A stretch of 64,000 nt of DNA from a phage. Made by a program: the position numbers and the translations under genes. The DNA lies in assembly GCA_032986305.1 (NCBI GenBank), contig GCA_032986305.1_3672.1. One strand, given 5' to 3'. Below the pieces are notes generated by a model. It searched no databases and was not told the DNA's origin. It saw only the letters and a program-made list of their open reading frames with translations. Shown here in pieces: positions 27,650 through 37,163 of the stretch (its first letter is position 1; the number at the start of each line of letters is the position of its first letter).

Positions 27650-27726
27650 GTGGTCTCCACGGAGTGATTCGAACACTCGACCTCCTGATCCCAAATCAGG
27701 CGCTCTACCAAGCTGAGCTACGCGGA
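27650..27726 (-). tRNA. tRNA-Pro (anticodon UGG)
   Basis: hand-folded cloverleaf: acceptor CTCCGCG/CGTGGAG, T-loop TTCGAAT, anticodon loop TTTGGGA, CCA encoded. Confidence 0.8.
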
Positions 27727-27737
27727 GTATTTACTAT

Positions 27738-27812
27738 TTGGTGGCCCTGGGTGGAATTGAACCACCGTCTGGCGATTATGAGTCGCTTGCTTGAACCTTC
27801 CAGCTACAGGGC
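27738..27812 (-). tRNA. tRNA-Met (anticodon CAU; elongator or Ile-lysidine type)
   Basis: acceptor GGCCCTG/CAGGGCC, T-loop TTCAATT, anticodon loop CTCATAA, CCA encoded. Confidence 0.75.
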
Positions 27813-27813
27813 C

Positions 27814-27889
27814 TTGGTGCTGATGGCAGGACTTGAACCTGCAACCTATTGATTACAAATCAATTGCACTACCAATTGTGCTACATCAG
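27814..27889 (-). tRNA. tRNA-Thr (anticodon UGU)
   Basis: acceptor GCTGATG/CATCAGC, D-stem GCAC/GTGC, anticodon loop TTTGTAA, T-loop TTCAAGT, CCA encoded. Confidence 0.8.
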
Positions 27890-27894
27890 CAAAA

Positions 27895-27993
27895 AGGTGC
27901 TAGGCGGTGGAATCGAACCACCTATGTATTCAACGACTACCTCGTCTATTTTCAGGATTAAAAATCCTCGCCCTTGCCAAAGGGCTTACCTAG
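27895..27993 (-). tRNA. atypical tRNA-like gene, possibly tRNA-Lys (anticodon UUU) with ~30-nt extra region; may be a pseudo-tRNA
   Basis: perfect 7-bp acceptor pairing GCTAGGT/GCCTAGC, canonical T-arm GGTGG-TTCGATT-CCACC, D-stem GCCC/GGGC, 4-bp anticodon stem with loop TTTTTAA, but ~99 nt long and no CCA. Confidence 0.35.
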
Positions 27994-28091
27994 CTCAGTA
28001 TGTTGACCATGTTGCTAGTCGGCGATGACGACTGTAACATTTGATAATCCGGTTCTGCTTCCGGCTTTCGCTTAATTACAAGGTCAACAAT

Positions 28092-28182
28092 GTGGCGGAG
28101 AGTAATGGAATCGAACCATCATCGAGTCATCCTCAATGGGACGGTTTTCAAGACCGCTTGAGCACCATTGCTCCCTACCCTC
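28092..28182 (-). tRNA. tRNA-Ser (anticodon UGA), long variable arm
   Basis: acceptor GGAGGGT/ACTCTCC, anticodon loop CTTGAAA, extended variable arm, discriminator G, CCA encoded. Confidence 0.7.
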
Positions 28183-28189
28183 CTTTATA

Positions 28190-28218
28190 AATTATACTGA
28201 TAATGACACTGATTTTCG
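28190..28218 (-). promoter_or_regulatory. sigma70-like promoter upstream of tRNA-Ser
   Basis: minus strand TCGAAA-N17-TATAAT, -10 ending 7 nt before the tRNA 5' end. Confidence 0.4.
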
Positions 28219-28296
28219 AGCAGTTAGTGACTAGTATAAACGACGATAAATATCAATGCCATTATCTGTATTATTTACGCATCTAAAAATATAAAT

Positions 28297-28383
28297 TTGG
28301 TGGGGAGTGGTGGAGTCGAACCACCCGAGTCGCAATGACAATAGATTTACAGTCTACACCGCTACCTCTACGGGATAACTCCC
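28297..28383 (-). tRNA. tRNA-Tyr (anticodon GUA)
   Basis: acceptor GGGGAGT/ACTCCCC, anticodon loop CTGTAAA, long variable arm, T-loop TTCGACT, CCA encoded. Confidence 0.75.
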
Positions 28384-28387
28384 CAAT

Positions 28388-28462
28388 TTGGCACCCCGTA
28401 CTGGACTCGAACCAGTGTCAACGGCTTAGAAGGCCGCTGCTTTATCCACTAAGCTAACAGGG
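28388..28462 (-). tRNA. tRNA-Arg (anticodon UCU)
   Basis: anticodon stem-loop GCGGC-CTTCTAA-GCCGT, T-arm ACTGG-TTCGAGT-CCAGT, CCA encoded. Confidence 0.7.
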
Positions 28463-28559
28463 CACTGGGTGGCTTTCTTTTACACCTTAGCCGCCAGAAA
28501 AGGTGGGAGACCATGTTTACAATATTACACTGTTAAGCAAAGTTTGTCAAGAAAATATT

Positions 28560-29563: not shown

Positions 29564-29773
29564 TCAACAGATTCCGGCCTTATCCTTCCTGTCTGCGTAT
29601 TCTTTAATCGCAACCTCATCTGCATTAGTGACCAGGTCTTCAAAGTAACTCTCAAGCTCCTCGTCAATGTCAGGAGACCAGCCCTTTTTCCTGTCAGTGT
29701 GAATCGCAGACTTGTTAAACTTAGTACAGTTCTTTGCTACCGGATTGTTCATTAAGCACCCCTCAGCGTTCAT
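29564..29773 (-). CDS. hypothetical protein (69 aa)
   Basis: ORF only. Confidence 0.3.
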   Translation of the reverse strand: MNAEGCLMNNPVAKNCTKFNKSAIHTDRKKGWSPDIDEELESYFEDLVTNADEVAIKEYADRKDKAGIC

Positions 29774-30341
29774 AGTAAATCTTATTTAACATTACCTCAT
29801 CCTTTGCAGAAAGGATATCTAGATATGCATCACCGAATCTACCTGCAACAACCTCTGCATGATACATCACTTCGTTAATATCGTCAAGAGGGATAACTGG
29901 ATGACCGTATCTCTCTGAGTATTGTCTCAGAGTGCGATGTAGGGAGTCATCATCATAGGCAGACTTTTTAATATCGCAAACACGACGAATAGCCTTGATG
30001 TCGAAAAACCCTGTACGATACCAACCAAGAAAAAGGTTTCGTGCAGTGTCAACATCTACATCAATACCATTAAGAACCTTATCTACAAGATAGCTGTCAT
30101 CCTTTGGACCAGCTTCCTTAGTGCGAATGTAGTTGCCATCTTTTCCAGGTGACATCTCCTTCTCATCACCAACCTGCATGCCATCATTTGGCGGTGTTAG
30201 CCACTTATCCGGATGCTTACGATCACGAGCGTTAGAATGATTACGCTGGAAACCAGGCTTCCACTTGAAAGTTTTCTCCATCTGTTCTTCATTCTGATAA
30301 CGTTTTGCAATCTTTTCACGGTCATCTTTGCGTGAACCCAT
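29763..30341 (-). CDS. hypothetical protein (192 aa)
   Basis: ORF with GAGGAGG RBS. Confidence 0.4.
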   Translation of the reverse strand: MGSRKDDREKIAKRYQNEEQMEKTFKWKPGFQRNHSNARDRKHPDKWLTPPNDGMQVGDEKEMSPGKDGNYIRTKEAGPKDDSYLVDKVLNGIDVDVDTARNLFLGWYRTGFFDIKAIRRVCDIKKSAYDDDSLHRTLRQYSERYGHPVIPLDDINEVMYHAEVVAGRFGDAYLDILSAKDEVMLNKIYYER

Positions 30342-30454
30342 AGCTGCCTCCTCTTCAAGTTATAGAAAAACTCACTGTATCACTTTGTAACGAGCTTTTC
30401 TATCAAACTGGTGCGATTGCATTACCTGGTATAGTTTATATAGCTGTGGAGCGA

Positions 30455-30710
30455 TTTAGGGGCCTTCTTGTCAGTTTCCACACATAAACTTCATCCAAGC
30501 TCGCGCGGGAGGCTCTCAACCGACTCCTTACGGCGCTGGCAAGCTTTCGTCGGTGGTCCACATCAGTGCTCGGCCTTTGGCCTGCGCTATCGCTTCGCTC
30601 CCACACATGTTAACAGACCTGCATGTATGCACTTCTGTTATTGTGTGCACCAAGGAGGCCCGGCATCTCGCCCCTCGTAGGCGAGTGCCAATGAAGGGCC
30701 GACACTACCT
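30455..30710. ncRNA. GC-rich non-coding island, candidate structured RNA (strand and function unknown)
   Basis: ~250 bp GC-rich block between AT-rich DNA; hairpins CTCGCC..GGCGAG and GGCC-TTT-GGCC; GGGGCCTTC at one end nearly complementary to GAAGGGCC at the other; only a low-complexity ORF. Confidence 0.25.
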
Positions 30711-30843
30711 ATAGTAAGTAATAATTTTAAAACATGGTACTTAGGATCTAGTATATTCTACATAAGTTAAGTATATGTACTTAGTACCATAAGTACTAGA
30801 TCTTTTATTTTTTATTATTTAGTTATTTTAGTTATATTCTTTA

Positions 30844-30927
30844 TGTGTCCGTATCACGGACAGTTAGTGTCCGTATTACGGACAGATGTGTCCGCGTGAC
30901 GGACAGTAGTGTCCGTATCACGGACAG
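30844..30927. repeat. four tandem ~21-22 bp palindromic repeats GTGTCCGT-N3-5-ACGGACAG (operator or iteron array)
   Basis: copies centred at about 30854, 30876, 30898, 30918; each is a 7-bp inverted repeat; 20-22 bp periodicity; AT-rich palindrome-rich DNA lies next to it at 30720-30840. Confidence 0.6.
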
Positions 30928-31001
30928 TTACTGACCTCTGTTCCAGAGCGAACATAAAACATACGAATCCTTATAGTACAGATATTTAAGTTTTTACTGG
31001 T

Positions 31002-31352
31002 CTAACCAGTTGTTGACATTCGAATAACCTCTTCTGGTGGCAAAACTTTGGAAAATGTACATCTTTTACCTCTCCCTTGTGTGGATATTTCAACCACTCC
31101 TGCACATTCTAAAGTTTTAACACACGCTGCTGCTTTTGTTTTCTTTATCCCAACATCTGCTGCAATTTTCCTTGTGCTGGGTGTGAAGCGTGAATTTCCT
31201 CCAAGCTTATACCAGTTGTGCAGGTAGCAGTATACGATCTTGTCATATAAGTCAAGAACAACAACCTCCCCAGTTGTGTCATTCAAAACTTTTGACATAG
31301 ACAGTATTTCAAGGGGGACTTTAAGATATAGCAGCTTATCCCCATCTTTCAT
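31002..31352 (-). CDS. small helix-turn-helix-like DNA-binding protein (tentative)
   Basis: 116 aa; segment ..STRKIAADVGIKKTKAAACVKTLECAGVVEI.. resembles an HTH; gene ends ~75 bp before the palindromic repeat array. Confidence 0.35.
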   Translation of the reverse strand: MKDGDKLLYLKVPLEILSMSKVLNDTTGEVVVLDLYDKIVYCYLHNWYKLGGNSRFTPSTRKIAADVGIKKTKAAACVKTLECAGVVEISTQGRGKRCTFSKVLPPEEVIRMSTTG

Positions 31353-31399
31353 ATCTCCTGATTCTCCTTGTGTGGCAATTTTCTTTAAAATAGCAGGGA

Positions 31400-31954
31400 T
31401 TACTCCCCGCTGTCAATAGCAAGACTCATTGCAATACGGTATGCCTCTTCTAATGGTAAGAGTCTCCCCCACACATCCCAACCGACATCAAACTGCCTGC
31501 CAAACAACTGCTGTGTGGTTCCGTGAGCATGACCGAACAGTTGGACTGATCCGTGAGGCTTTCTGTTCCACTTTGCAAACTGGTAATGGCTCATACAGAT
31601 CAAATTCTTGTTGTGGCGAAGCTCGTAATAATCTACAACCTCATGACCGAACTCTTTCATAATTCTGACAGTCGTCCTTGTGTCATGGTTACCACGAACA
31701 AGAATAATATGTCCGTTCAACATATTTAGAACATCTGGGAGCAATTTGTTGATATTCTTATCATTAGTGCACGCAATATCTCCCAAGTGAAACACAGTGT
31801 CTGCAGGTGACACAACAGAGTTCCACTTGGTGATGATTCCCGCATTCATACTGTCAAGATTGTGATCATACTGAGATCTGTGTTTTTGACATGAATCGAA
31901 CTCCATGACCCGCTGGTGGAGAAAGTGTGTGTCGCTTGTTACAAAGTATTTCAT
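31400..31954 (-). CDS. calcineurin-like metallophosphoesterase (start at internal MKYFVTSDTHF)
   Basis: motifs D-x-H (SDTHF), GDIA, GNHD, GHAH in canonical order. Confidence 0.6.
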   Translation of the reverse strand: MKYFVTSDTHFLHQRVMEFDSCQKHRSQYDHNLDSMNAGIITKWNSVVSPADTVFHLGDIACTNDKNINKLLPDVLNMLNGHIILVRGNHDTRTTVRIMKEFGHEVVDYYELRHNKNLICMSHYQFAKWNRKPHGSVQLFGHAHGTTQQLFGRQFDVGWDVWGRLLPLEEAYRIAMSLAIDSGE

Positions 31955-31961
31955 ACATTCC

Positions 31962-32372
31962 TCATTTAAGTTTAATGCAGTTTTTAAGCTGGCGTTCCAT
32001 ACGATCCACAACCCTGTCTGGAACATCATGAATGCTTTTATTACCATGGCGGTTTTCAACCACGATCACGGTATAACTATACCCATGACTGATCGCCATG
32101 TCAATATATTCTTGCACATATTTTTCTTTTGTAAACGTATTACTTACCACGATACGGTCGTATCCCATACGCATCATATCTTCTACGTTATCTTTGCACC
32201 ATTTTGCTGCAAGTGTTACTTTACTTGCATCCCAGTTATAATTTCCATCATCGTCGTACCAGAACATGTCGTTCTCAAAATGTGGATACAGACCGTCTAA
32301 AGATAGCGCATTTGCCAGTGTTGATTTGCCAGACCCTGGCAGACCACGCACGATATATAGCATTTTAGACAT
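31962..32372 (-). CDS. P-loop polynucleotide kinase-like protein (T4 Pnk kinase-domain-like)
   Basis: Walker A ..IVRGLPGSGKST.. near N-terminus; start MSKML with GGAGGA RBS; adjacent to phosphatase and divergent from RNA ligase. Confidence 0.55.
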   Translation of the reverse strand: MSKMLYIVRGLPGSGKSTLANALSLDGLYPHFENDMFWYDDDGNYNWDASKVTLAAKWCKDNVEDMMRMGYDRIVVSNTFTKEKYVQEYIDMAISHGYSYTVIVVENRHGNKSIHDVPDRVVDRMERQLKNCIKLK

Positions 32373-32400
32373 AGTAATCCTCCGTTTTAATTTCAACGAT

Positions 32401-32429
32401 AGTATACCTGACTGTTTTGTTAATTTCAA
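32401..32429 (-). promoter_or_regulatory. sigma70-like promoter for kinase-phosphatase operon
   Basis: minus strand TTGAAA-N17-TATACT. Confidence 0.45.
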
Positions 32430-32432
32430 GTG

Positions 32433-32461
32433 TTGACACTAGGTTATTTGTGTGGCAGGAT
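32433..32461 (+). promoter_or_regulatory. candidate early promoter (good -35 TTGACA, weak -10)
   Basis: TTGACA at 32433-32438, back to back with the divergent minus-strand -35. Confidence 0.3.
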
Positions 32462-32472
32462 AGGCTGACAAA

Positions 32473-33408
32473 ATGACAAATGAGGAACGTATGATGAAGT
32501 ATTTTAATGCAGATGACCTAGTAGACAAAGGTCTTGTAACCAGTCGGTATTATCCAGATCTTGGATTAAAGATCTATAAATATGCCAGAAAAGTATTCTA
32601 CAACAATCTGTGGCATTTGTCTCCGCGTTTACTGGAGTGCCGAGGTATTGTTGTTGGCAATGAGGGGAATGTTGTGGCATGGCCTTTCACAAAAGTATTC
32701 AACTTAGGAGAAAACTCCACCAACCTACCGGACAGTAAACTTGTTACTGCGGTAGAGAAAAAGAACGGATTCCTTGGTGTGGTATCATCTCATAAAGGTG
32801 AACTATTGTTCTCAACAACCGGATCTCTTGATTCTCCATATTGTAACCTCACAAAGGAAACCATCCAAGAGCAATGTGGTAATTTAGATCTTATCAAGAA
32901 GGTTATGGGCAATGAAAACATGACATTCATGTTTGAAATTTGTCACCCTTCAGATCCGCATATTGTTCAGGAAGATCATGGCGCATATTTGATAGGTTGC
33001 AGATATAATGATTCTGGAATAATGCTGCCAGAAGCAGCTTTAGATGGGATTGCCAAATACCTTGGCGCAAAACGTCCTCACACTGTGCGTGAAATTCCGT
33101 TCAGCTATGCAAAAGAATTGGCTGCAGAAACAAGAGGTGAAGGGTATATGATTCGTAAGCCTTACTACCCTTATGATCTGCAGCTGAAGATCAAGTCTCC
33201 ATACTATCTGGCACGGAAGGCCGTAATGAGGGGTAAAGCTTGGAAGATTTGGGATGATGATATCTTTAAACGTGTTGACGAAGAGTTTTACGGCATGGTA
33301 AACTTCATTCGTAGCAATTACACAGAAGATGTGTGGAACTGCCTACTGGAGCAGGAACGCAGGGAGATACTCGACCACTATTTCCACAACGAGGACTATA
33401 TGCAATGA
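32473..33408 (+). CDS. RNA ligase, T4 Rnl1-like (alternative start at 32491)
   Basis: recalled T4 Rnl1 motifs: ECRGI, FNLGEN, nucleotidyltransferase motif I KKNG (K-x-[DN]-G), EGYMIRK..LKIKS. Confidence 0.6.
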   Translation: MTNEERMMKYFNADDLVDKGLVTSRYYPDLGLKIYKYARKVFYNNLWHLSPRLLECRGIVVGNEGNVVAWPFTKVFNLGENSTNLPDSKLVTAVEKKNGFLGVVSSHKGELLFSTTGSLDSPYCNLTKETIQEQCGNLDLIKKVMGNENMTFMFEICHPSDPHIVQEDHGAYLIGCRYNDSGIMLPEAALDGIAKYLGAKRPHTVREIPFSYAKELAAETRGEGYMIRKPYYPYDLQLKIKSPYYLARKAVMRGKAWKIWDDDIFKRVDEEFYGMVNFIRSNYTEDVWNCLLEQERREILDHYFHNEDYMQ

Positions 33409-33755
33409 AGAAGTTGATTGTGTGGCTGGATGATTTGAGAGATCCGTCAAATTATGGACTCCCAGACGCTGTTTGGCTGAAGAATTCCTCCGAGTTTATG
33501 GATTTTATTAACGATAATGGAAAGCTCTACAGACGCGTTTCTGAGTGGCATATGGACAACGACTTAGGAGAAGTATTCGAAGGATATGATTGCCTATCCA
33601 TGTTGGAGGAAAAATTTGTATTCGGTAAGCCTCCCGTGGTTGACAACGTGAAGATTTTCGTACATACTTCTAATCCATCAGCGGCTCGTAAATTCATGCT
33701 TGCAGCTGACTCGTTTAAAAAGTTTGGAATAGAGATTAAACAAAACATCTACTGA
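33405..33755 (+). CDS. hypothetical protein, possibly flavodoxin-like/receiver-like fold
   Basis: 116 aa; KKLIVWLDD start and later DxD and VHTSNP segments loosely resemble a receiver-type domain; ATGA overlap with ligase stop. Confidence 0.3.
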   Translation: MKKLIVWLDDLRDPSNYGLPDAVWLKNSSEFMDFINDNGKLYRRVSEWHMDNDLGEVFEGYDCLSMLEEKFVFGKPPVVDNVKIFVHTSNPSAARKFMLAADSFKKFGIEIKQNIY

Positions 33756-33763
33756 GGACACTT

Positions 33764-34525
33764 ATGCGACGACTGATTATTATCTCCGGTGCTGGTTTGA
33801 GCGCTGAATCTGGTATTCCCACTTTCCGATCTGGTAGCACTGCAATGTGGGAGAATTTCAGCATCGATGAGGTGTGCAACATCCACACCTTTGCCAAGAA
33901 CTACTATAAGGTGCATGACTTTTACAATGCACGTCGTGTAGCTCTGGGCAGTGTTGATCCTAACCTTGCACATCTTCGGATCGCTGAGTGGTATTCCCGC
34001 TGGTCTGGTCGTGTGATCAACCTTACCACCAATGTAGATGATTTGCTGGAGCGTGCTGGTGTAAAACATGAAGATATTTTACATGTCCACGGGTATTTGC
34101 CTGAAATCACCTACGAAGATGCTGAAGGTAATGATGTAATTAAAAATATCGGATACACGGAGGTAGATACAGGTAAGTATACCTGGGTTAAGCCCAATGT
34201 AGTGTTCTTCGGTGAGGTTGCTCCTAAGTATACAGACATGTATGACCTGTTGACATCTCTCACAAGCAATGATATGGTGATCCTGGTAGGTTGTTCTAAC
34301 ACAGTTATTAATTTTAACTGGGAATTGTTTCCTGCTACTTGTAAAGGCACAAAACTGCTGATTGTAAACAAGTATGATTCGCAGAGTGCAGATGGAAGTG
34401 GCATTTCACGTAGCGACCTTTATCAATATGAGGATCGCGGGATCCCTGTATGGTTTAACGGTGCTGTTGACGCTTTCTCTGATAAAGTATTTATTGAAAC
34501 TGTAGAAAACTTTATGGAACTTTAA
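33764..34525 (+). CDS. SIR2-family (sirtuin-like) NAD-dependent enzyme
   Basis: motifs GAGLSAESGIPTFR, TNVDDLLERAG, catalytic-type HG, VFFGE; no obvious zinc-ribbon cysteines. Confidence 0.65.
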   Translation: MRRLIIISGAGLSAESGIPTFRSGSTAMWENFSIDEVCNIHTFAKNYYKVHDFYNARRVALGSVDPNLAHLRIAEWYSRWSGRVINLTTNVDDLLERAGVKHEDILHVHGYLPEITYEDAEGNDVIKNIGYTEVDTGKYTWVKPNVVFFGEVAPKYTDMYDLLTSLTSNDMVILVGCSNTVINFNWELFPATCKGTKLLIVNKYDSQSADGSGISRSDLYQYEDRGIPVWFNGAVDAFSDKVFIETVENFMEL

Positions 34526-34538
34526 AAGGAGACCTTTA

Positions 34539-35252
34539 ATGCTGAATACTAAACTGATCGACAACCTGGAAAAACTGTCTCAGCCTGAAAACTACCTTTG
34601 GTCTGCCAACTGGGTGGAAAACTGGAACCGTGTGGCAGCTAAGGTGAAAAAATCATACACACCATTCGAATTACAGCTTAGCTTCATTGAGGAAGAGTTC
34701 AATGAAGTTTTGGAAGAGCTGGAGAAAGGTGATGGTGGAGATCACTTGCTAAAAGAGGCCTGCGATCTTCATGTTGTCACAAGTTATGCCGCTTATCTTG
34801 TTAATGACAATCACGAAAAGTGGTCAAACCTGTTTGATAATCCACGAGGTATTAAGTTCAAGATTGGTGAGTTCTATGATACACTGATCGCTGCGAAAAA
34901 CACCTCTAAGCAAAGAGCGTCTGCTTACCGCTTAGCAGAGTTGTCAACAGCTTTGCTGTTCCAGCTTCGCGGAGATGTGTGCGGGATGATGCGTAAGGTT
35001 CTCAAATCGAATGACAGCAAGTTTGCACGGGTCAACCATCTACGGTATTCACACGGTGCCAGTGCAGATATGCCTGCTGAACAACTCATCGAGTTGGAGA
35101 TTAAAGATCTTGAGCGACGCTTTGATGGTCGATATGAAGGTTTTGTTGCTAAGGAAGAATTCTACAACGGTAATAAAGTTATCATATTCCTTGACAGTAA
35201 AGGTAAGATCATGAAGCCTTCAAGCTTCAAGGATGTAACAGGGTATATTTAA
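34539..35252 (+). CDS. hypothetical protein, possibly MazG/HisE-like nucleotide pyrophosphohydrolase domain
   Basis: N-terminal EExxE-type acidic helix pattern (..FIEEEFNEVLEELEKG..); weak. Confidence 0.3.
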   Translation: MLNTKLIDNLEKLSQPENYLWSANWVENWNRVAAKVKKSYTPFELQLSFIEEEFNEVLEELEKGDGGDHLLKEACDLHVVTSYAAYLVNDNHEKWSNLFDNPRGIKFKIGEFYDTLIAAKNTSKQRASAYRLAELSTALLFQLRGDVCGMMRKVLKSNDSKFARVNHLRYSHGASADMPAEQLIELEIKDLERRFDGRYEGFVAKEEFYNGNKVIIFLDSKGKIMKPSSFKDVTGYI

Positions 35253-35259
35253 CAACATA

Positions 35260-35285
35260 GCCGGGATCACCCGGCTTTACTTGTT
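35260..35285 (+). terminator. intrinsic terminator
   Basis: GCCGGG-ATCA-CCCGGC hairpin followed by TTTACTTGTT. Confidence 0.45.
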
Positions 35286-35624
35286 GTGGAAAGTATGCAA
35301 GTGAGGCAGATAGTTATGTACAAGCACTCTAGAGATCTTGAAAACGATGCTGTGTTTGGGGATCAGATGAAAGAGTTGGTTAAACTCATAGGCAGGATAG
35401 AGGATAAGTTTGACACTAAGATCTACATCGACAGCAAAGTATTCAACCACAAAATATGGACAAATCTGTGTGTTGGACTACATGGAGATAAAGATGTTGT
35501 AAATTTAGTTGTAATTAAGTTCATAGTGTGGCAGAATAAGACTATACGTTATTCCGATCCACACTTACTTGTTTATCCTATAAAAGACCTACTACAGAAA
35601 GAGGACTGCAATGCCGTTATTTAA
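35286..35624 (+). CDS. hypothetical protein (112 aa)
   Basis: ORF only. Confidence 0.3.
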   Translation: MESMQVRQIVMYKHSRDLENDAVFGDQMKELVKLIGRIEDKFDTKIYIDSKVFNHKIWTNLCVGLHGDKDVVNLVVIKFIVWQNKTIRYSDPHLLVYPIKDLLQKEDCNAVI

Positions 35625-35880
35625 TCTTGCTAAACCTGTAGAAGCCCACCAGTTTGACGGAAGCTCTTCATCAGTATCTGATCTGCAACGGTGGATTGAT
35701 ACAGGTGTGTTTACATCGTCACCTGTTCGGACCAGAGATCTTCGTCGCATGTGTGAGCTTGTCGAGCCTTTTGGTAACCTTGTCTTGTACCAAGGAGATT
35801 GGCTAGTTGACTTTATGGGAGACTGGTTGGTAATGAGTAAAGAAGAGATGTTTAAAATTTTTAAGGAAGAGGCCGAGTAA
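35611..35880 (+). CDS. hypothetical protein (89 aa)
   Basis: ORF, overlaps neighbours. Confidence 0.3.
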   Translation: MPLFNLAKPVEAHQFDGSSSSVSDLQRWIDTGVFTSSPVRTRDLRRMCELVEPFGNLVLYQGDWLVDFMGDWLVMSKEEMFKIFKEEAE

Positions 35881-37163
35881 TGCATCAAATCAAAACAACA
35901 CTGTACGCACTGAACAAAGATGGCAGCTACCAACAGTGGAAAGTATTCACTGATGGCGAAAAGGTTATCGTAGAGTTTGGCAAGCTTGACGGTAAATTGC
36001 AGTACAAAGAGACGGTATGCACACCTAAGAACGTAGGTCGTGCCAATGAGACTACAGCTGAGCAACAGGCCGAGCTTGAGGCTATCAGCAAGTGGGAAAA
36101 ACAAGTCCGTCTGGGGTATGTTGAAAACATGGAAGATTGCGAGCAGGGTGTTGATCTTTTACCCATGCTGGTGCATGACTACCTGAAGCGTGGCAAGGCA
36201 CTTAAACTACCTTGCTGGATCTTGCGTAAGTTAGATGGCCTTCGTCTGCTTGTTGTTTTCCAAAATGGTGAGCCTAAATTTATTTCCCGTGGTAATAAGT
36301 CCTACCCTATTCAAGGAAAGCTTTTAGAGCAACTTCGTTCTTTCCATTCTACCACTGGGATTAAACAACTTGATGGGGAACTATACATTCATGGTCTTCC
36401 TTTGCAGAAAATAGTGTCTCTTGCTAAACGGTGGCGAACACAGGAAGAGATTCAGGCCGAGATCGATAAAGACTATGAGGCAGATAAAAAACGCCGTCAT
36501 ACCGCAATTAAGGCAGGCTTATCAACATACAAAAACTTCAACAAGGTAGATATTCCTGTCGATGTTGAGCCTGTTCGTGATGATTTGCGTTACGGTGGGT
36601 ACTGTAGCTACGATCTTGAGTATCACATTTTTGATATTCCTAGCGACAAGGTGTGGTGGGATCCAGAAACAGAGTCTGGACGCTGCAAGGATCTTATGGA
36701 TGCAGAGGATACCGTTACCACTCTGATGCTTGACCATATCAAGGTTGTTGACGCAGAGCTTGCGTACACAGTTGATCATTGCGAAGAATCTGTTGGTATA
36801 TTCATGTCCGAAGGATATGAAGGTACTATCATGCGTAATTTCTGCGGTAAATATGAGTATGGTCAGAGAACATCTGAAGCATTGAAATGGAAAAAGTTCA
36901 ACGACGCAGAGGTGAAAGTTATTGACGTTGAGAAAGATAAGAATGATGAAGGTGTTCTTATCTGTGTTGACAAGGAAGGTGTTGTTGTTAAAATGAAGAT
37001 GAAAGGCACGCACGAGGAGCGTAGCTATGACAGGATGCAGGAAATGATCGGCAAGTTTGTCACCTTCAAATATCAAGCAAGGACAGAAGACAACAACTAC
37101 CAATTCCCTGTCGGTATCTGCGTCCGAAATGTTAACCCAGACACTTGGGAGGTGCTGGAATAA
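35880..37163 (+). CDS. ATP-dependent DNA ligase
   Basis: motif I K-L-D-G-L-R (..ILRKLDGLRLLVV..), motif IV/V-like EGTIMR and LKWKKF, OB-fold-like C-terminus. Confidence 0.65.
   Translation: MHQIKTTLYALNKDGSYQQWKVFTDGEKVIVEFGKLDGKLQYKETVCTPKNVGRANETTAEQQAELEAISKWEKQVRLGYVENMEDCEQGVDLLPMLVHDYLKRGKALKLPCWILRKLDGLRLLVVFQNGEPKFISRGNKSYPIQGKLLEQLRSFHSTTGIKQLDGELYIHGLPLQKIVSLAKRWRTQEEIQAEIDKDYEADKKRRHTAIKAGLSTYKNFNKVDIPVDVEPVRDDLRYGGYCSYDLEYHIFDIPSDKVWWDPETESGRCKDLMDAEDTVTTLMLDHIKVVDAELAYTVDHCEESVGIFMSEGYEGTIMRNFCGKYEYGQRTSEALKWKKFNDAEVKVIDVEKDKNDEGVLICVDKEGVVVKMKMKGTHEERSYDRMQEMIGKFVTFKYQARTEDNNYQFPVGICVRNVNPDTWEVLE

Follow-up and report, generated by a model that had tools for sequence, protein, structure and literature searches.

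Does a set of kinase, phosphatase and RNA ligase genes that differs in composition from that of phage T4 serve the repair of tRNAs? This question is raised by a locus in an Escherichia coli phage of the rV5 group (GenBank assembly GCA_032986305.1, contig GCA_032986305.1_3672.1). The analysed stretch of 64,000 nucleotides, here called the window, is 97-99% identical to genomes of Vequintavirus, the genus of phage V5. RNA-cutting defences, e.g., anticodon nucleases, are a common bacterial means against phages, and T4 Pnkp and Rnl1 restore tRNAs after cleavage of the anticodon loop by PrrC. To our knowledge, no viral answer other than this textbook case has been elucidated in detail. An earlier note, made from the sequence alone, had described an RNA repair gene set at the locus. 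The three enzyme families that it named were correct, while half of the cluster, i.e., the genes for cREC, Sir2 and MazG-like proteins, had been missed. As set out below, the locus probably encodes a heal-and-seal trio with lineage-specific add-ons, which is built around kinase, phosphoesterase and ligase and whose likely job is tRNA repair against RNA-cutting defences of the host.

Gene organization of the locus

The six cluster genes, encoding phosphoesterase, kinase, ligase, cREC, Sir2 and MazG-like protein, are all located within positions 31400-35252. The minus strand carries the genes for the metallophosphoesterase (31400..31954, 184 aa when counted from the ATG of the phage Murica annotation) and for the stand-alone P-loop polynucleotide-kinase-like protein (31962..32372, 136 aa), the latter preceded at a distance of 7 nt by the ribosome-binding site GGAGG. 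The gene for the Rnl1-family ATP-dependent RNA ligase (32473..33408, 311 aa) follows on the plus strand, such that the start codons of kinase and ligase face opposite ways across a divergent intergenic region of 100 bp (32373..32472). The divergent orientation of kinase and phosphoesterase relative to the ligase had been recognized earlier and was confirmed, with all three genes at the positions noted. Promoter-like sites in the intergenic region, TTGAAA-17-TATACT on the minus strand (32429-32401) and TTGACA on the plus strand (32433-32438), are consensus matches only.

With its end set at 33408, the region originally described stops inside an operon. The stop codon of the ligase gene overlaps the cREC start (ATGA), and the genes run on to a hairpin at 35259-35276. 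This operon comprises four overlapping or closely spaced plus-strand genes for the ligase, the cREC protein (33405..33755, 116 aa; a receiver-like domain with predicted cyclic-phosphate processing), a class III (CobB/SIRT5-like) sirtuin (33764..34525, 253 aa) and a MazG-like nucleotide pyrophosphohydrolase (34539..35252, 237 aa). It ends with the GC-rich plus-strand hairpin AGCCGGGATCACCCGGCT, which is followed by T-rich sequence and coincides in position with a terminator in the phage Murica annotation.

Family and fold assignments of the encoded proteins

Single-sequence searches of the PDB, run separately for ligase and kinase, returned nothing useful; the PDB matches for both proteins came from profiles built on homologues. 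The kinase matches Pfam AAA_33 (E 8e-10), a family that also includes non-RNA kinases, and PHROG_505 'polynucleotide kinase' (E 7.5e-10). Residues G15, K16 and T18 of the Walker A motif are invariant, as are D35, N78, T79, E106, N107, R108, H109 and H115; an obvious counterpart of R38 of T4 Pnk is absent. Top PDB profile matches were a Rhizopus kinase (9d8a), Pnkp1 (E 1e-5), T4 Pnk (1ly1/1ltq, E 5e-5) and CthPnkp. In Foldseek, an AF2 model (pLDDT 91) yielded TM values of 0.72-0.75 to T4 Pnk and Clostridium Pnk (1ly1: E 2e-6, TM 0.72). Zeta toxin as well as shikimate, gluconate and adenylate kinases ranked below polynucleotide kinases in the sequence searches and had lower TM values in the fold comparison. 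The protein thus groups with polynucleotide kinases, and membership in an unrelated NTPase family, which the earlier note had named as evidence against its reading, was not seen. On the basis of sequence and model, it is a candidate 5'-OH kinase that consists of the kinase domain only, without a fused C-terminal HAD (DxDxT) 3'-phosphatase domain.

The phosphatase had been read as a metallophosphoesterase rather than a HAD protein, encoded separately from the kinase, and both statements are correct. The protein matches Pfam Metallophos (E 5e-6) and Metallophos_2 (E 3.6e-6) at or above the cutoff and PHROG_547 'phosphoesterase' with E 5e-52. Its DxH, GD, GNH, H and GHxH motifs are complete, and the metal ligands D8, H10, D59, N89, H90, H123, H142 and H144, together with G58, G88 and G141, are invariant in 36 homologues of 28-49% identity. 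The nearest solved structure is that of aq_1665 from Aquifex (1xm7; profile E 1.9e-23), a protein of unknown function, and the phage protein falls into the aq_1665 branch, outside the branch of lambda phosphatase and CthPnkp. In bacterial Pnkp, 3'-end healing is carried out by a binuclear metallophosphoesterase, and 2',3'-cyclic phosphates are hydrolyzed by the binuclear enzymes CthPnkp and lambda phosphatase (PMC2190708). Judged by its sequence, the phage protein is a candidate healer of 2',3'-cyclic or 3'-phosphate RNA ends.

With regard to the ligase, Pfam RNA_lig_T4_1 (PF09511) is matched over profile positions 1-227 of 227 (E 1.1e-14; 55.2 bits vs. a cutoff of 28.3) and PHROG_562 with E 1.8e-65. 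All 54 sequences compared share K96, N98, G99, E155, E223, G224, K239 and K241 of the nucleotidyltransferase motifs I, III, IV and V, and the conserved residues align with K99, E159, E227/G228 and K240/K242 of T4 in the profile alignment. Profile and fold searches place the protein closest to T4 Rnl1 and fungal Trl1 (Trl1-LIG) and not to DNA ligases; its fold is clearly of the RNA-ligase type, with Rnl1 as the nearest clade. The searches and the invariant motif residues bear out the T4 Rnl1 motifs noticed earlier. The outcome that had been set against this reading, assignment to the DNA ligases, was not seen. On the other hand, the protein scores far below the cutoff for the T4 RnlA equivalog (NCBIfam TIGR02308; 35.9 vs. 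242 bits), its motif I reads KxNG vs. KxDG in T4, and it lacks the 120-aa C-terminal domain of T4 Rnl1 (tRNA specificity), carrying a short C-terminal domain of its own. Four invariant positions, N98, H163, K249 and R253, have no counterparts in T4 Rnl1; in linear spacing they resemble N150, H227, R334 and R337 of Trl1, residues that bind a 2'-phosphate mimic. In fungal Trl1-type (Rnl6) ligases, the 2'-phosphate pocket consists of the motif I Asn, a His located after motif III and an RxxR located after motif V.

PHROG_562 and many database records bear the label 'RNA ligase and tail fiber protein attachment catalyst'. According to this label, the ligase could mainly act in tail-fibre attachment, in analogy to the second activity of T4 gp63, and the neighbouring enzymes would be unrelated to it. 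We consider this extremely improbable, as the label has been passed on from T4 gp63 through homology, the nucleotidyl-transfer residues are invariant, the T4 C-terminal domain is absent and the ligase is linked or even fused to a kinase (see below). In addition, the gene is situated on the plus-strand side of the transcription switch together with genes for DNA ligase, exonuclease and RNase H, away from the terminase gene within the minus-strand block.

The remaining operon members were assigned as follows. The cREC protein matches PF20274 cREC_REC (E 2.3e-14), with D9, D10, D51, D53, T88 and K96 conserved in ten homologues. The sirtuin matches PF02146 (E 7e-28) and, as best PDB match, E. coli CobB (1s5p, E 3e-21). 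Its GAGxSxxSG, FYxxRR and TTNVDDL motifs and H109 are conserved, while the alignment reveals no cysteine where CobB has its zinc cysteines. The MazG-like protein found no match in Pfam and PDB sequence searches, and its identity rests on PHROG_671 (E 5.7e-22) and on the acidic motif EExxE...D (E52, E53, E56, D76) that is conserved in 14 homologues.

Linkage across related phages

Thirty-seven non-redundant phage loci were picked with the presence of a ligase relative as the sole criterion. In 35 of these the kinase is encoded no more than 8 kb from the ligase, and in 33 the phosphoesterase is; both are present in 31 loci and both lie within 1 kb in 22, a linkage that is far beyond chance. Phosphoesterase (MPE), ligase (RNL) and kinase (KIN) genes are arranged in two main orders, MPE-RNL-KIN (15 loci) and KIN-RNL-MPE (12 loci), and therefore the linkage survives rearrangement. 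The pair of kinase and phosphoesterase, which is encoded opposite to the ligase in the window, shares its strand in 34 of 35 other loci. In eleven related loci, a single ORF of about 420 aa encodes both kinase and ligase (the contig end truncates one of the copies), and one representative fusion was confirmed with Pfam. Furthermore, kinase and ligase match different parts (positions 2-109 and 441-686) of the same family, PHROG_8238 'RNA ligase' (737 positions). Genes for cREC, Sir2 and MazG, on the other hand, are present in only 11, 12 and 14 of 81 related loci, respectively, all from relatives of about 145 kb; their order varies, e.g., RNL-cREC-KIN-Sir2 in locus L003, and the genes remain interleaved. 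Three points are new: this ligase clade is constantly accompanied by kinase and phosphoesterase, in varying gene orders; kinase and ligase are fused in 11 loci; and cREC, Sir2 and MazG are lineage-specific.

The window also encodes an ATP-dependent DNA ligase (35880-37163), and 29 of the 81 loci have such a gene no more than 8 kb from the RNA ligase. DNA end repair is thus a rival reading: kinase and phosphoesterase could clean 5'-OH/3'-phosphate DNA ends for this nearby enzyme, and T4 Pnkp works on DNA, too. Alternatively, the proteins could act on free nucleotides or NAD derivatives, with the 'RNA ligase' using another substrate; a weak match of the kinase profile to nicotinamide riboside kinase (E 0.008) and the frequent presence of NAD salvage genes in the neighbourhood point in this direction. 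We nevertheless judge DNA end repair or nucleotide metabolism very unlikely. It is with the Rnl1-type ligase, a protein of RNA-ligase fold, that the kinase is linked most tightly and most constantly, fusions included; the DNA ligase is less constant, and small-molecule kinases fall behind polynucleotide kinases in sequence and fold searches.

Neighbours of the ligase in other phages comprise the NAD-reconstitution genes of NARP1 and NARP2, their Macro phosphatase and the Thoeris inhibitor Tad3, which suggests a counter-defence island. NAMPT-like genes were detected in 41, Macro in 18 and NadM-Nudix in six of 81 loci, and PRPS-like genes are also present. The Macro protein of the NARP anti-defence pathways is an ADPR-1''-phosphate phosphatase. 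We weighed the NAD-related neighbours as support for a 2'-phosphate pathway and dismissed them, since they correspond to genes of the anti-defence pathways NARP1, NARP1-AP and NARP2. In a Pfam census covering 331 ORFs near the ligase at 31 non-redundant loci, none of Tpt1/KptA, Sir2 and 2H was among the commonest neighbour families outside the Vequintavirus-like group.

Proposed repair pathway and relation to known systems

We infer the enzymatic activities, the substrate and the counter-defence role of the trio, which would be self-sufficient as a repair unit, as follows. The P-loop kinase would phosphorylate the 5'-OH end of a broken RNA, and the binuclear metallophosphoesterase would remove a 2',3'-cyclic or 3'-phosphate from the other end. 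The Rnl1-family ligase would then self-adenylate on K96 and join the healed ends. The cREC protein, the CobB-like sirtuin and the MazG-like pyrophosphatase, predicted to be co-transcribed with the ligase, are lineage-specific additions that may deal with other end chemistries (2'-phosphate) or with NAD-derived by-products. Host or phage-encoded tRNAs cut in the anticodon loop by RNA-cleaving defences of the host would be the likely substrates to be restored. Several observations run counter to the trio reading, i.e., the aq_1665 affiliation of the phosphoesterase, the absence of an obvious counterpart of T4 Pnk R38, the non-RNA kinases in AAA_33, the DNA ligase near 29 of 81 loci and the location of pair and ligase on opposite strands here.

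Compared with T4 Pnkp and Rnl1, the kinase stands alone, the phosphatase is a binuclear metalloenzyme instead of a HAD/DxDxT domain and the ligase differs in the features described above. The earlier claim of a non-T4 composition is therefore right, yet such a composition is not new, given the precedents of bacterial Pnkp (PMC2190708) and phage V5 (PMC9503650). The bacterial Pnkp/Hen1 systems (Clostridium thermocellum Pnkp; Capnocytophaga Pnkp1-Rnl-Hen1) likewise combine P-loop kinase, binuclear metallophosphoesterase and RNA ligase, and their kinase resembles that of the phage (TM 0.73-0.75; E 1e-5 for the Pnkp1 profile match). However, they consist of one polypeptide with a phosphoesterase of the lambda-phosphatase branch and an Rnl4 ligase, partnered by the methyltransferase Hen1, whereas three genes and the aq_1665 branch are found here. 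No methyltransferase-family match was obtained among the genes scanned at 29763-37163, and hence there is no Hen1 candidate. A scan of nine genes in the same interval, from the cluster and its flanks, detected neither 2H nor Tpt1/KptA families; relative to fungal and plant Trl1 and Tpt1, cREC and sirtuin are only predicted to take the place of 2H cyclic phosphodiesterase and Tpt1.

The gene neighbourhood as such is already known as a prediction. Iyer, Burroughs, Anantharaman and Aravind (2022) described a sirtuin-centred, predicted NAD-utilising RNA repair neighbourhood, type 2, with Escherichia phage V5 and Proteus phage Mydo as prototypes (PMC9503650). The sirtuin linked to T4-like ligase, cREC, kinase and MazG by which this type is defined is present in the window, and genus and gene content (T4-like tRNA ligase, cREC, nucleotide kinase, sirtuin, MazG pyrophosphatase, calcineurin-like phosphoesterase) do not differ. 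The cluster represents annotated genes and a rediscovered neighbourhood. The difference lies in the viewpoint: with the sirtuin at the centre the phosphoesterase is 'occasional', whereas with the ligase at the centre kinase and phosphoesterase are constant and the sirtuin is lineage-specific. We found no experiments in the literature on the activity of the ligase, kinase or phosphoesterase clade.

Iyer et al. (2022) proposed an NAD-dependent pathway of the fungal 2'-phosphate type. In this pathway, cREC or the metallophosphoesterase would open the 2',3'-cyclic phosphate to 2'-phosphate and 3'-OH, the kinase would make the 5'-phosphate and the ligase would seal only ends carrying a 2'-phosphate. 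The sirtuin would then move the 2'-phosphate at the junction onto NAD, as Tpt1/KptA does, and MazG or the phosphoesterase would clear the ADP-ribose cyclic phosphate by-product. This is consistent with the presence of ligase, cREC, Sir2 and MazG in one operon, with the interleaving that is kept in relatives despite changes in order, with the class III FYxxRR anion-binding motif and catalytic His of the sirtuin and with the four ligase residues spaced like those of Trl1 and missing from T4 Rnl1. It nevertheless appears unlikely to us. Most phages with this ligase clade carry kinase and phosphoesterase only, the neighbour census points away from Tpt1/KptA, Sir2 and 2H, the resemblance to Trl1 is one of linear spacing and the NAD-related neighbours elsewhere are accounted for by NARP1-AP. 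In addition, we know of no sirtuin acting on RNA 2'-phosphates.

It is conceivable, though distinctly unlikely, that the ligase clade is the viral counterpart of Trl1, preferring or requiring a 2'-phosphate at the 3'-end via a pocket of N98, H163, K249 and R253, and that the zinc-less sirtuin of Vequintavirus is an NAD-dependent RNA 2'-phosphotransferase. If so, this would be a new sirtuin activity and a functional analogue of Tpt1/KptA, and sirtuin-less phages would rely on the KptA of their hosts, thereby supplying substrates for the bacterial enzyme, for which we know of no natural substrate.

If, on the other hand, the heal-and-seal trio works as predicted, it would constitute a widespread second design for tRNA repair. 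At least 658 sequenced phages encode a ligase of this clade, among them Vequintavirinae and the PaoP5/K8-like Pseudomonas phages, which we take to be Pakpunavirus. Phages of both types are used in phage therapy, and knowing which host defences are beaten by the trio would help in predicting host range. Moreover, the published prediction of NAD-dependent RNA repair could be put to a direct biochemical test with the add-ons (sirtuin, cREC and MazG).

Finally, the repair genes had been described as lying next to a tRNA array. The array (27651..28463, minus strand; Pro, Met, Thr, one odd call, Ser, Tyr, Arg) is indeed near, but it is not adjacent because a gap of 2.9 kb with several small ORFs lies in between. 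ARAGORN identified seven tRNA genes, five of which reached the Rfam gathering score, while the remaining two were tRNA-like in an E-value scan. Among the 81 related loci, 35 have tRNA genes within 8 kb of the ligase, a raw count without a proper null model. Being located outside the operons, the array provides context and its tRNAs are possible substrates or replacements.

Organization of the predicted RNA repair cluster

The metallophosphoesterase gene (31400-31954, minus strand; Pfam Metallophos and Metallophos_2; PHROG_547, E 5e-52) and the P-loop kinase gene (31962-32372, minus strand; AAA_33, E 8e-10; PHROG_505 polynucleotide kinase, E 7.5e-10) are oriented leftwards. The kinase ATG, preceded at 7 nt by a GGAGG site, is located 100 bp from the start codon of the divergent RNA ligase gene (32473-33408, plus strand; RNA_lig_T4_1, E 1.1e-14; PHROG_562, E 1.8e-65). 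These positions bear out those proposed in an earlier note, and its three family calls agree with the Pfam and PHROG searches. Further genes follow on the plus strand: one for a cREC protein of 116 aa (PF20274, E 2.3e-14), the ATG of which overlaps the ligase stop codon, one for a sirtuin of 253 aa (33764-34525, 8 bases past cREC; PF02146, E 7e-28) and, 13 bases past the sirtuin gene, one for a MazG-like protein of 237 aa (PHROG_671, E 5.7e-22). A GC-rich hairpin (35259-35276) follows the latter, where a terminator is annotated in the Vequintavirus genome Murica. Because of the ligase-cREC overlap, the short spacings of the Sir2 and MazG genes and the terminal hairpin, the cluster is predicted to form two divergent transcription units, kinase plus phosphoesterase leftwards and ligase, cREC, Sir2 and MazG rightwards, and is bigger than first noted.

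The cluster is thus real and the earlier note had read it correctly in outline, as a set of RNA repair families, while missing its extension to cREC, Sir2 and MazG. It was already known as a prediction, since the neighbourhood listed by Iyer et al. (2022; PMC9503650) with phage V5 as prototype contains the same six components, making the cluster a member. It would function in the manner of T4 Pnkp plus Rnl1 and of bacterial Pnkp, yet belongs to neither system. No experimental paper on this repair neighbourhood was found in the literature. What is new is the ligase-centred view with kinase and phosphoesterase as the core, the existence of ORFs in which kinase and ligase are fused, a position of the ligase halfway between Rnl1 and Trl1, and a possible 2'-phosphate pocket in the phage ligase clade.

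Assignment of the three core enzymes

A PDB search with the single ligase sequence gave no match, while a profile of 54 homologues retrieved T4 Rnl1 as the best hit (E 3e-13), followed by an archaeal-type RNA ligase (E 0.01). Invariant among these homologues are K96, N98 and G99 (motif I), E155 (motif III), E223 and G224 (motif IV) as well as K239 and K241 (motif V). With the AlphaFold model (pLDDT 93), Foldseek ranked T4 Rnl1 alongside the ligase domains of fungal Trl1 (E ~1e-11 to 1e-12). Profile and model accordingly assign the protein to the RNA ligases of the Rnl1/Trl1 group. Orthology with T4 RnlA is rejected (35.9 bits vs. an equivalog cutoff of 242); the window ligase is 63 residues shorter and has its own short helical C-terminal domain. 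Some phages possess a pair of neighbouring RNA ligases, because in five related loci (L036, L037, L067, L070 and L071) a second, Rnl2-like enzyme (PF09414 with a PHA02142 OB domain) is encoded a few kb from the Rnl1-like one.

The kinase profile (52 homologues) matched, in rank order, a Rhizopus kinase (9d8a), Capnocytophaga Pnkp1, a p-loop protein (9drz) and T4 Pnk, with the Clostridium Pnkp kinase a few ranks below. The kinase model (pLDDT 91) aligns with T4 Pnk and CthPnk at TM 0.72-0.75, and Walker A residues G15, K16 and T18, D35 and the ENRH motif (E106-H109) are invariant. With T4 Pnk, Pnkp1 and CthPnk as profile and model matches, assignment to an unrelated NTPase family is rejected and the original kinase call stands.

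In the phosphoesterase, metal ligands D8, H10, D59, N89, H90, H123, H142 and H144 are invariant in 36 sequences with only 28-49% identity to the window protein. Among solved structures, Aquifex aq_1665 is the nearest (profile E 1.9e-23); the structure matches of the profile include neither lambda phosphatase nor CthPnkp. Hydrolysis of 2',3'-cyclic phosphates by this aq_1665-branch protein is plausible by analogy, because binuclear enzymes of the lambda phosphatase/CthPnkp branch catalyze it (PMC2190708).

Gene linkage and proposed repair mechanism

Searching 80 viral contigs carrying ligase relatives (35-89% identity) with the window's proteins gave 81 loci, with the kinase present in 73 and the phosphoesterase in 63. 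cREC (11/81), Sir2 (12/81) and MazG (14/81) occur exclusively in ~145-kb Vequintavirus relatives and are lineage-specific additions. Among 37 non-redundant loci (ligase identity <70%, flank at least 3 kb), the kinase is encoded in 35, the phosphoesterase in 33 and the pair in 31, with both lying within 1 kb in 22; the main gene orders are MPE-RNL-KIN (15) and KIN-RNL-MPE (12), i.e., arrangements of phosphoesterase, ligase and kinase. Since the linkage survives gene-order rearrangement, there is good evidence for a shared function of the three proteins. Kinase and ligase are even fused in a single ORF of ~420 aa in 11 loci (the contig end truncates one copy), as confirmed by Pfam in one representative, and the PHROG search of the window proteins yielded one 737-position 'RNA ligase' family whose start matches the kinase and whose end matches the ligase. 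The ligase clade is present in 658 cultured-phage genomes, including those of phages of Escherichia (199), Pseudomonas (175), Vibrio (83) and Streptomyces (50).

The best-supported model for the mechanism is a self-sufficient heal-and-seal trio, in which the kinase would make the 5'-phosphate, the phosphoesterase would clear the 3' end and the ligase would then seal. The main rival, a published proposal, likens the cluster to fungal tRNA splicing, where a 2'-phosphate remaining at the junction is removed with NAD; in the phage cluster the sirtuin would take the role of Tpt1 (PMC9503650). Four residues of Chaetomium Trl1 hold a 2'-phosphate mimic: N150 in motif I, H227, 9 residues past motif III, and R334 and R337, 9 and 12 residues past motif V (PMC6379707; PMC12440814). 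The phage clade has invariant N98 (motif I), H163 (8 residues past motif III), K249 and R253 (8 and 12 residues past motif V) at similar spacing, whereas T4 Rnl1 has D101 and I167 at the N98/H163 positions and no arginine past motif V. These invariant residues, a possible 2'-phosphate pocket judged by linear spacing only, keep the rival alive. The sirtuin, whose best match is E. coli CobB (E 3e-21), retains catalytic His109, the NAD-binding motifs and the class III FYxxRR motif; cysteines are missing at the CobB zinc-binding positions. Neither Tpt1/KptA nor 2H nor Sir2 was among the commonest families in a census of 331 neighbour ORFs from 31 loci. A Trl1-like, 2'-phosphate-dependent phage ligase with the sirtuin as RNA 2'-phosphotransferase appears improbable.

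Within 8 kb of the ligase, NAMPT-like genes occur in 41, Macro genes in 18 and NadM-Nudix genes in 6 of the 81 loci; other neighbours are PRPS-like genes, a 'Swiss army knife' HAD phosphatase and the Thoeris inhibitor Tad3. NAD reconstitution genes (NAMPT/Namat-like, NadM-Nudix, Macro phosphatase Adpp) accompany about half of the related loci (e.g., L015:5187-7186 and L050:4507-6948), and none is present in the 64-kb window. As support for an NAD-consuming repair step they are rejected, because they match the published anti-defence pathways NARP1, NARP1-AP and NARP2, where Macro functions as an ADPR-1''-phosphate phosphatase. The neighbourhood is more simply interpreted as a counter-defence gene island that includes the repair trio.

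Genomic surroundings

The tRNA array (27651-28463), described in the earlier note as next to the repair genes, is nearby and does not adjoin them; 2.9 kb containing small ORFs separate it from the phosphoesterase gene. In 35 of the 81 loci the ligase has tRNA genes no more than 8 kb away, a raw count without a null model that is suggestive of an association. Two tRNAs of the array are atypical: the 99-nt tRNA at 27896-27994 (minus strand), to which ARAGORN assigns a four-base anticodon (atcc), is 'tRNA-OTHER Asp|Gly' in Murica and reaches 31 bits in Rfam, just over threshold in a sensitive scan only, and the tRNA-Ser at 28093-28183 (minus strand) falls under the tRNA gathering threshold and better matches the tRNA-Sec model (41 bits).

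Gene strand flips from minus to plus at ~32.4 kb, coinciding with a sign change in GC skew. Near this change, four direct repeats (30845-30936) with a 21-22 bp period, each with the palindrome GTGTCCGT-N3-ACGGACA, adjoin an AT-rich stretch (~30770-30840); just upstream lies an HTH/DUF6945 gene (31002-31352) labelled replication initiation protein in PHROGs. The 30770-31352 site resembles an iteron-type replication origin or an operator array. A GC-rich stretch of ~270 nt (30440-30715, minus strand) within a 660-bp gap, unannotated in Murica too, contains no convincing ORF and gave a weak, chance-level Rfam match only; its predicted RNA fold is at -102.8 kcal/mol (z = -2.06 vs. shuffles). The stretch may encode a structured non-coding RNA or belong to the origin. 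Two small conserved ORFs (35286-35880; ~102 and ~89 aa) without Pfam match, located between the MazG terminator and an ATP-dependent DNA ligase gene, accompany the cluster in 145-kb relatives (11/81 loci each).

Over the 4.3 kb around the cluster, many Escherichia phages of the genus Vequintavirus (rV5 group), among them PDX, JES2013, FFH2 and Murica, share 97-99% identity with the window. In Murica the cluster genes are labelled phosphoesterase, ATPase, 'RNA ligase and tail attachment protein', hypothetical protein, Sir2 and nucleotide pyrophosphohydrolase, and the downstream neighbour ATP-dependent DNA ligase. About 20 GenBank records (MG0656xx; H1, H2, H8-H14 and others) are named 'Campylobacter phage' with Campylobacter jejuni as stated host; since they share 97-99% identity with E. 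coli Vequintavirus genomes over the cluster region, these host labels look doubtful.
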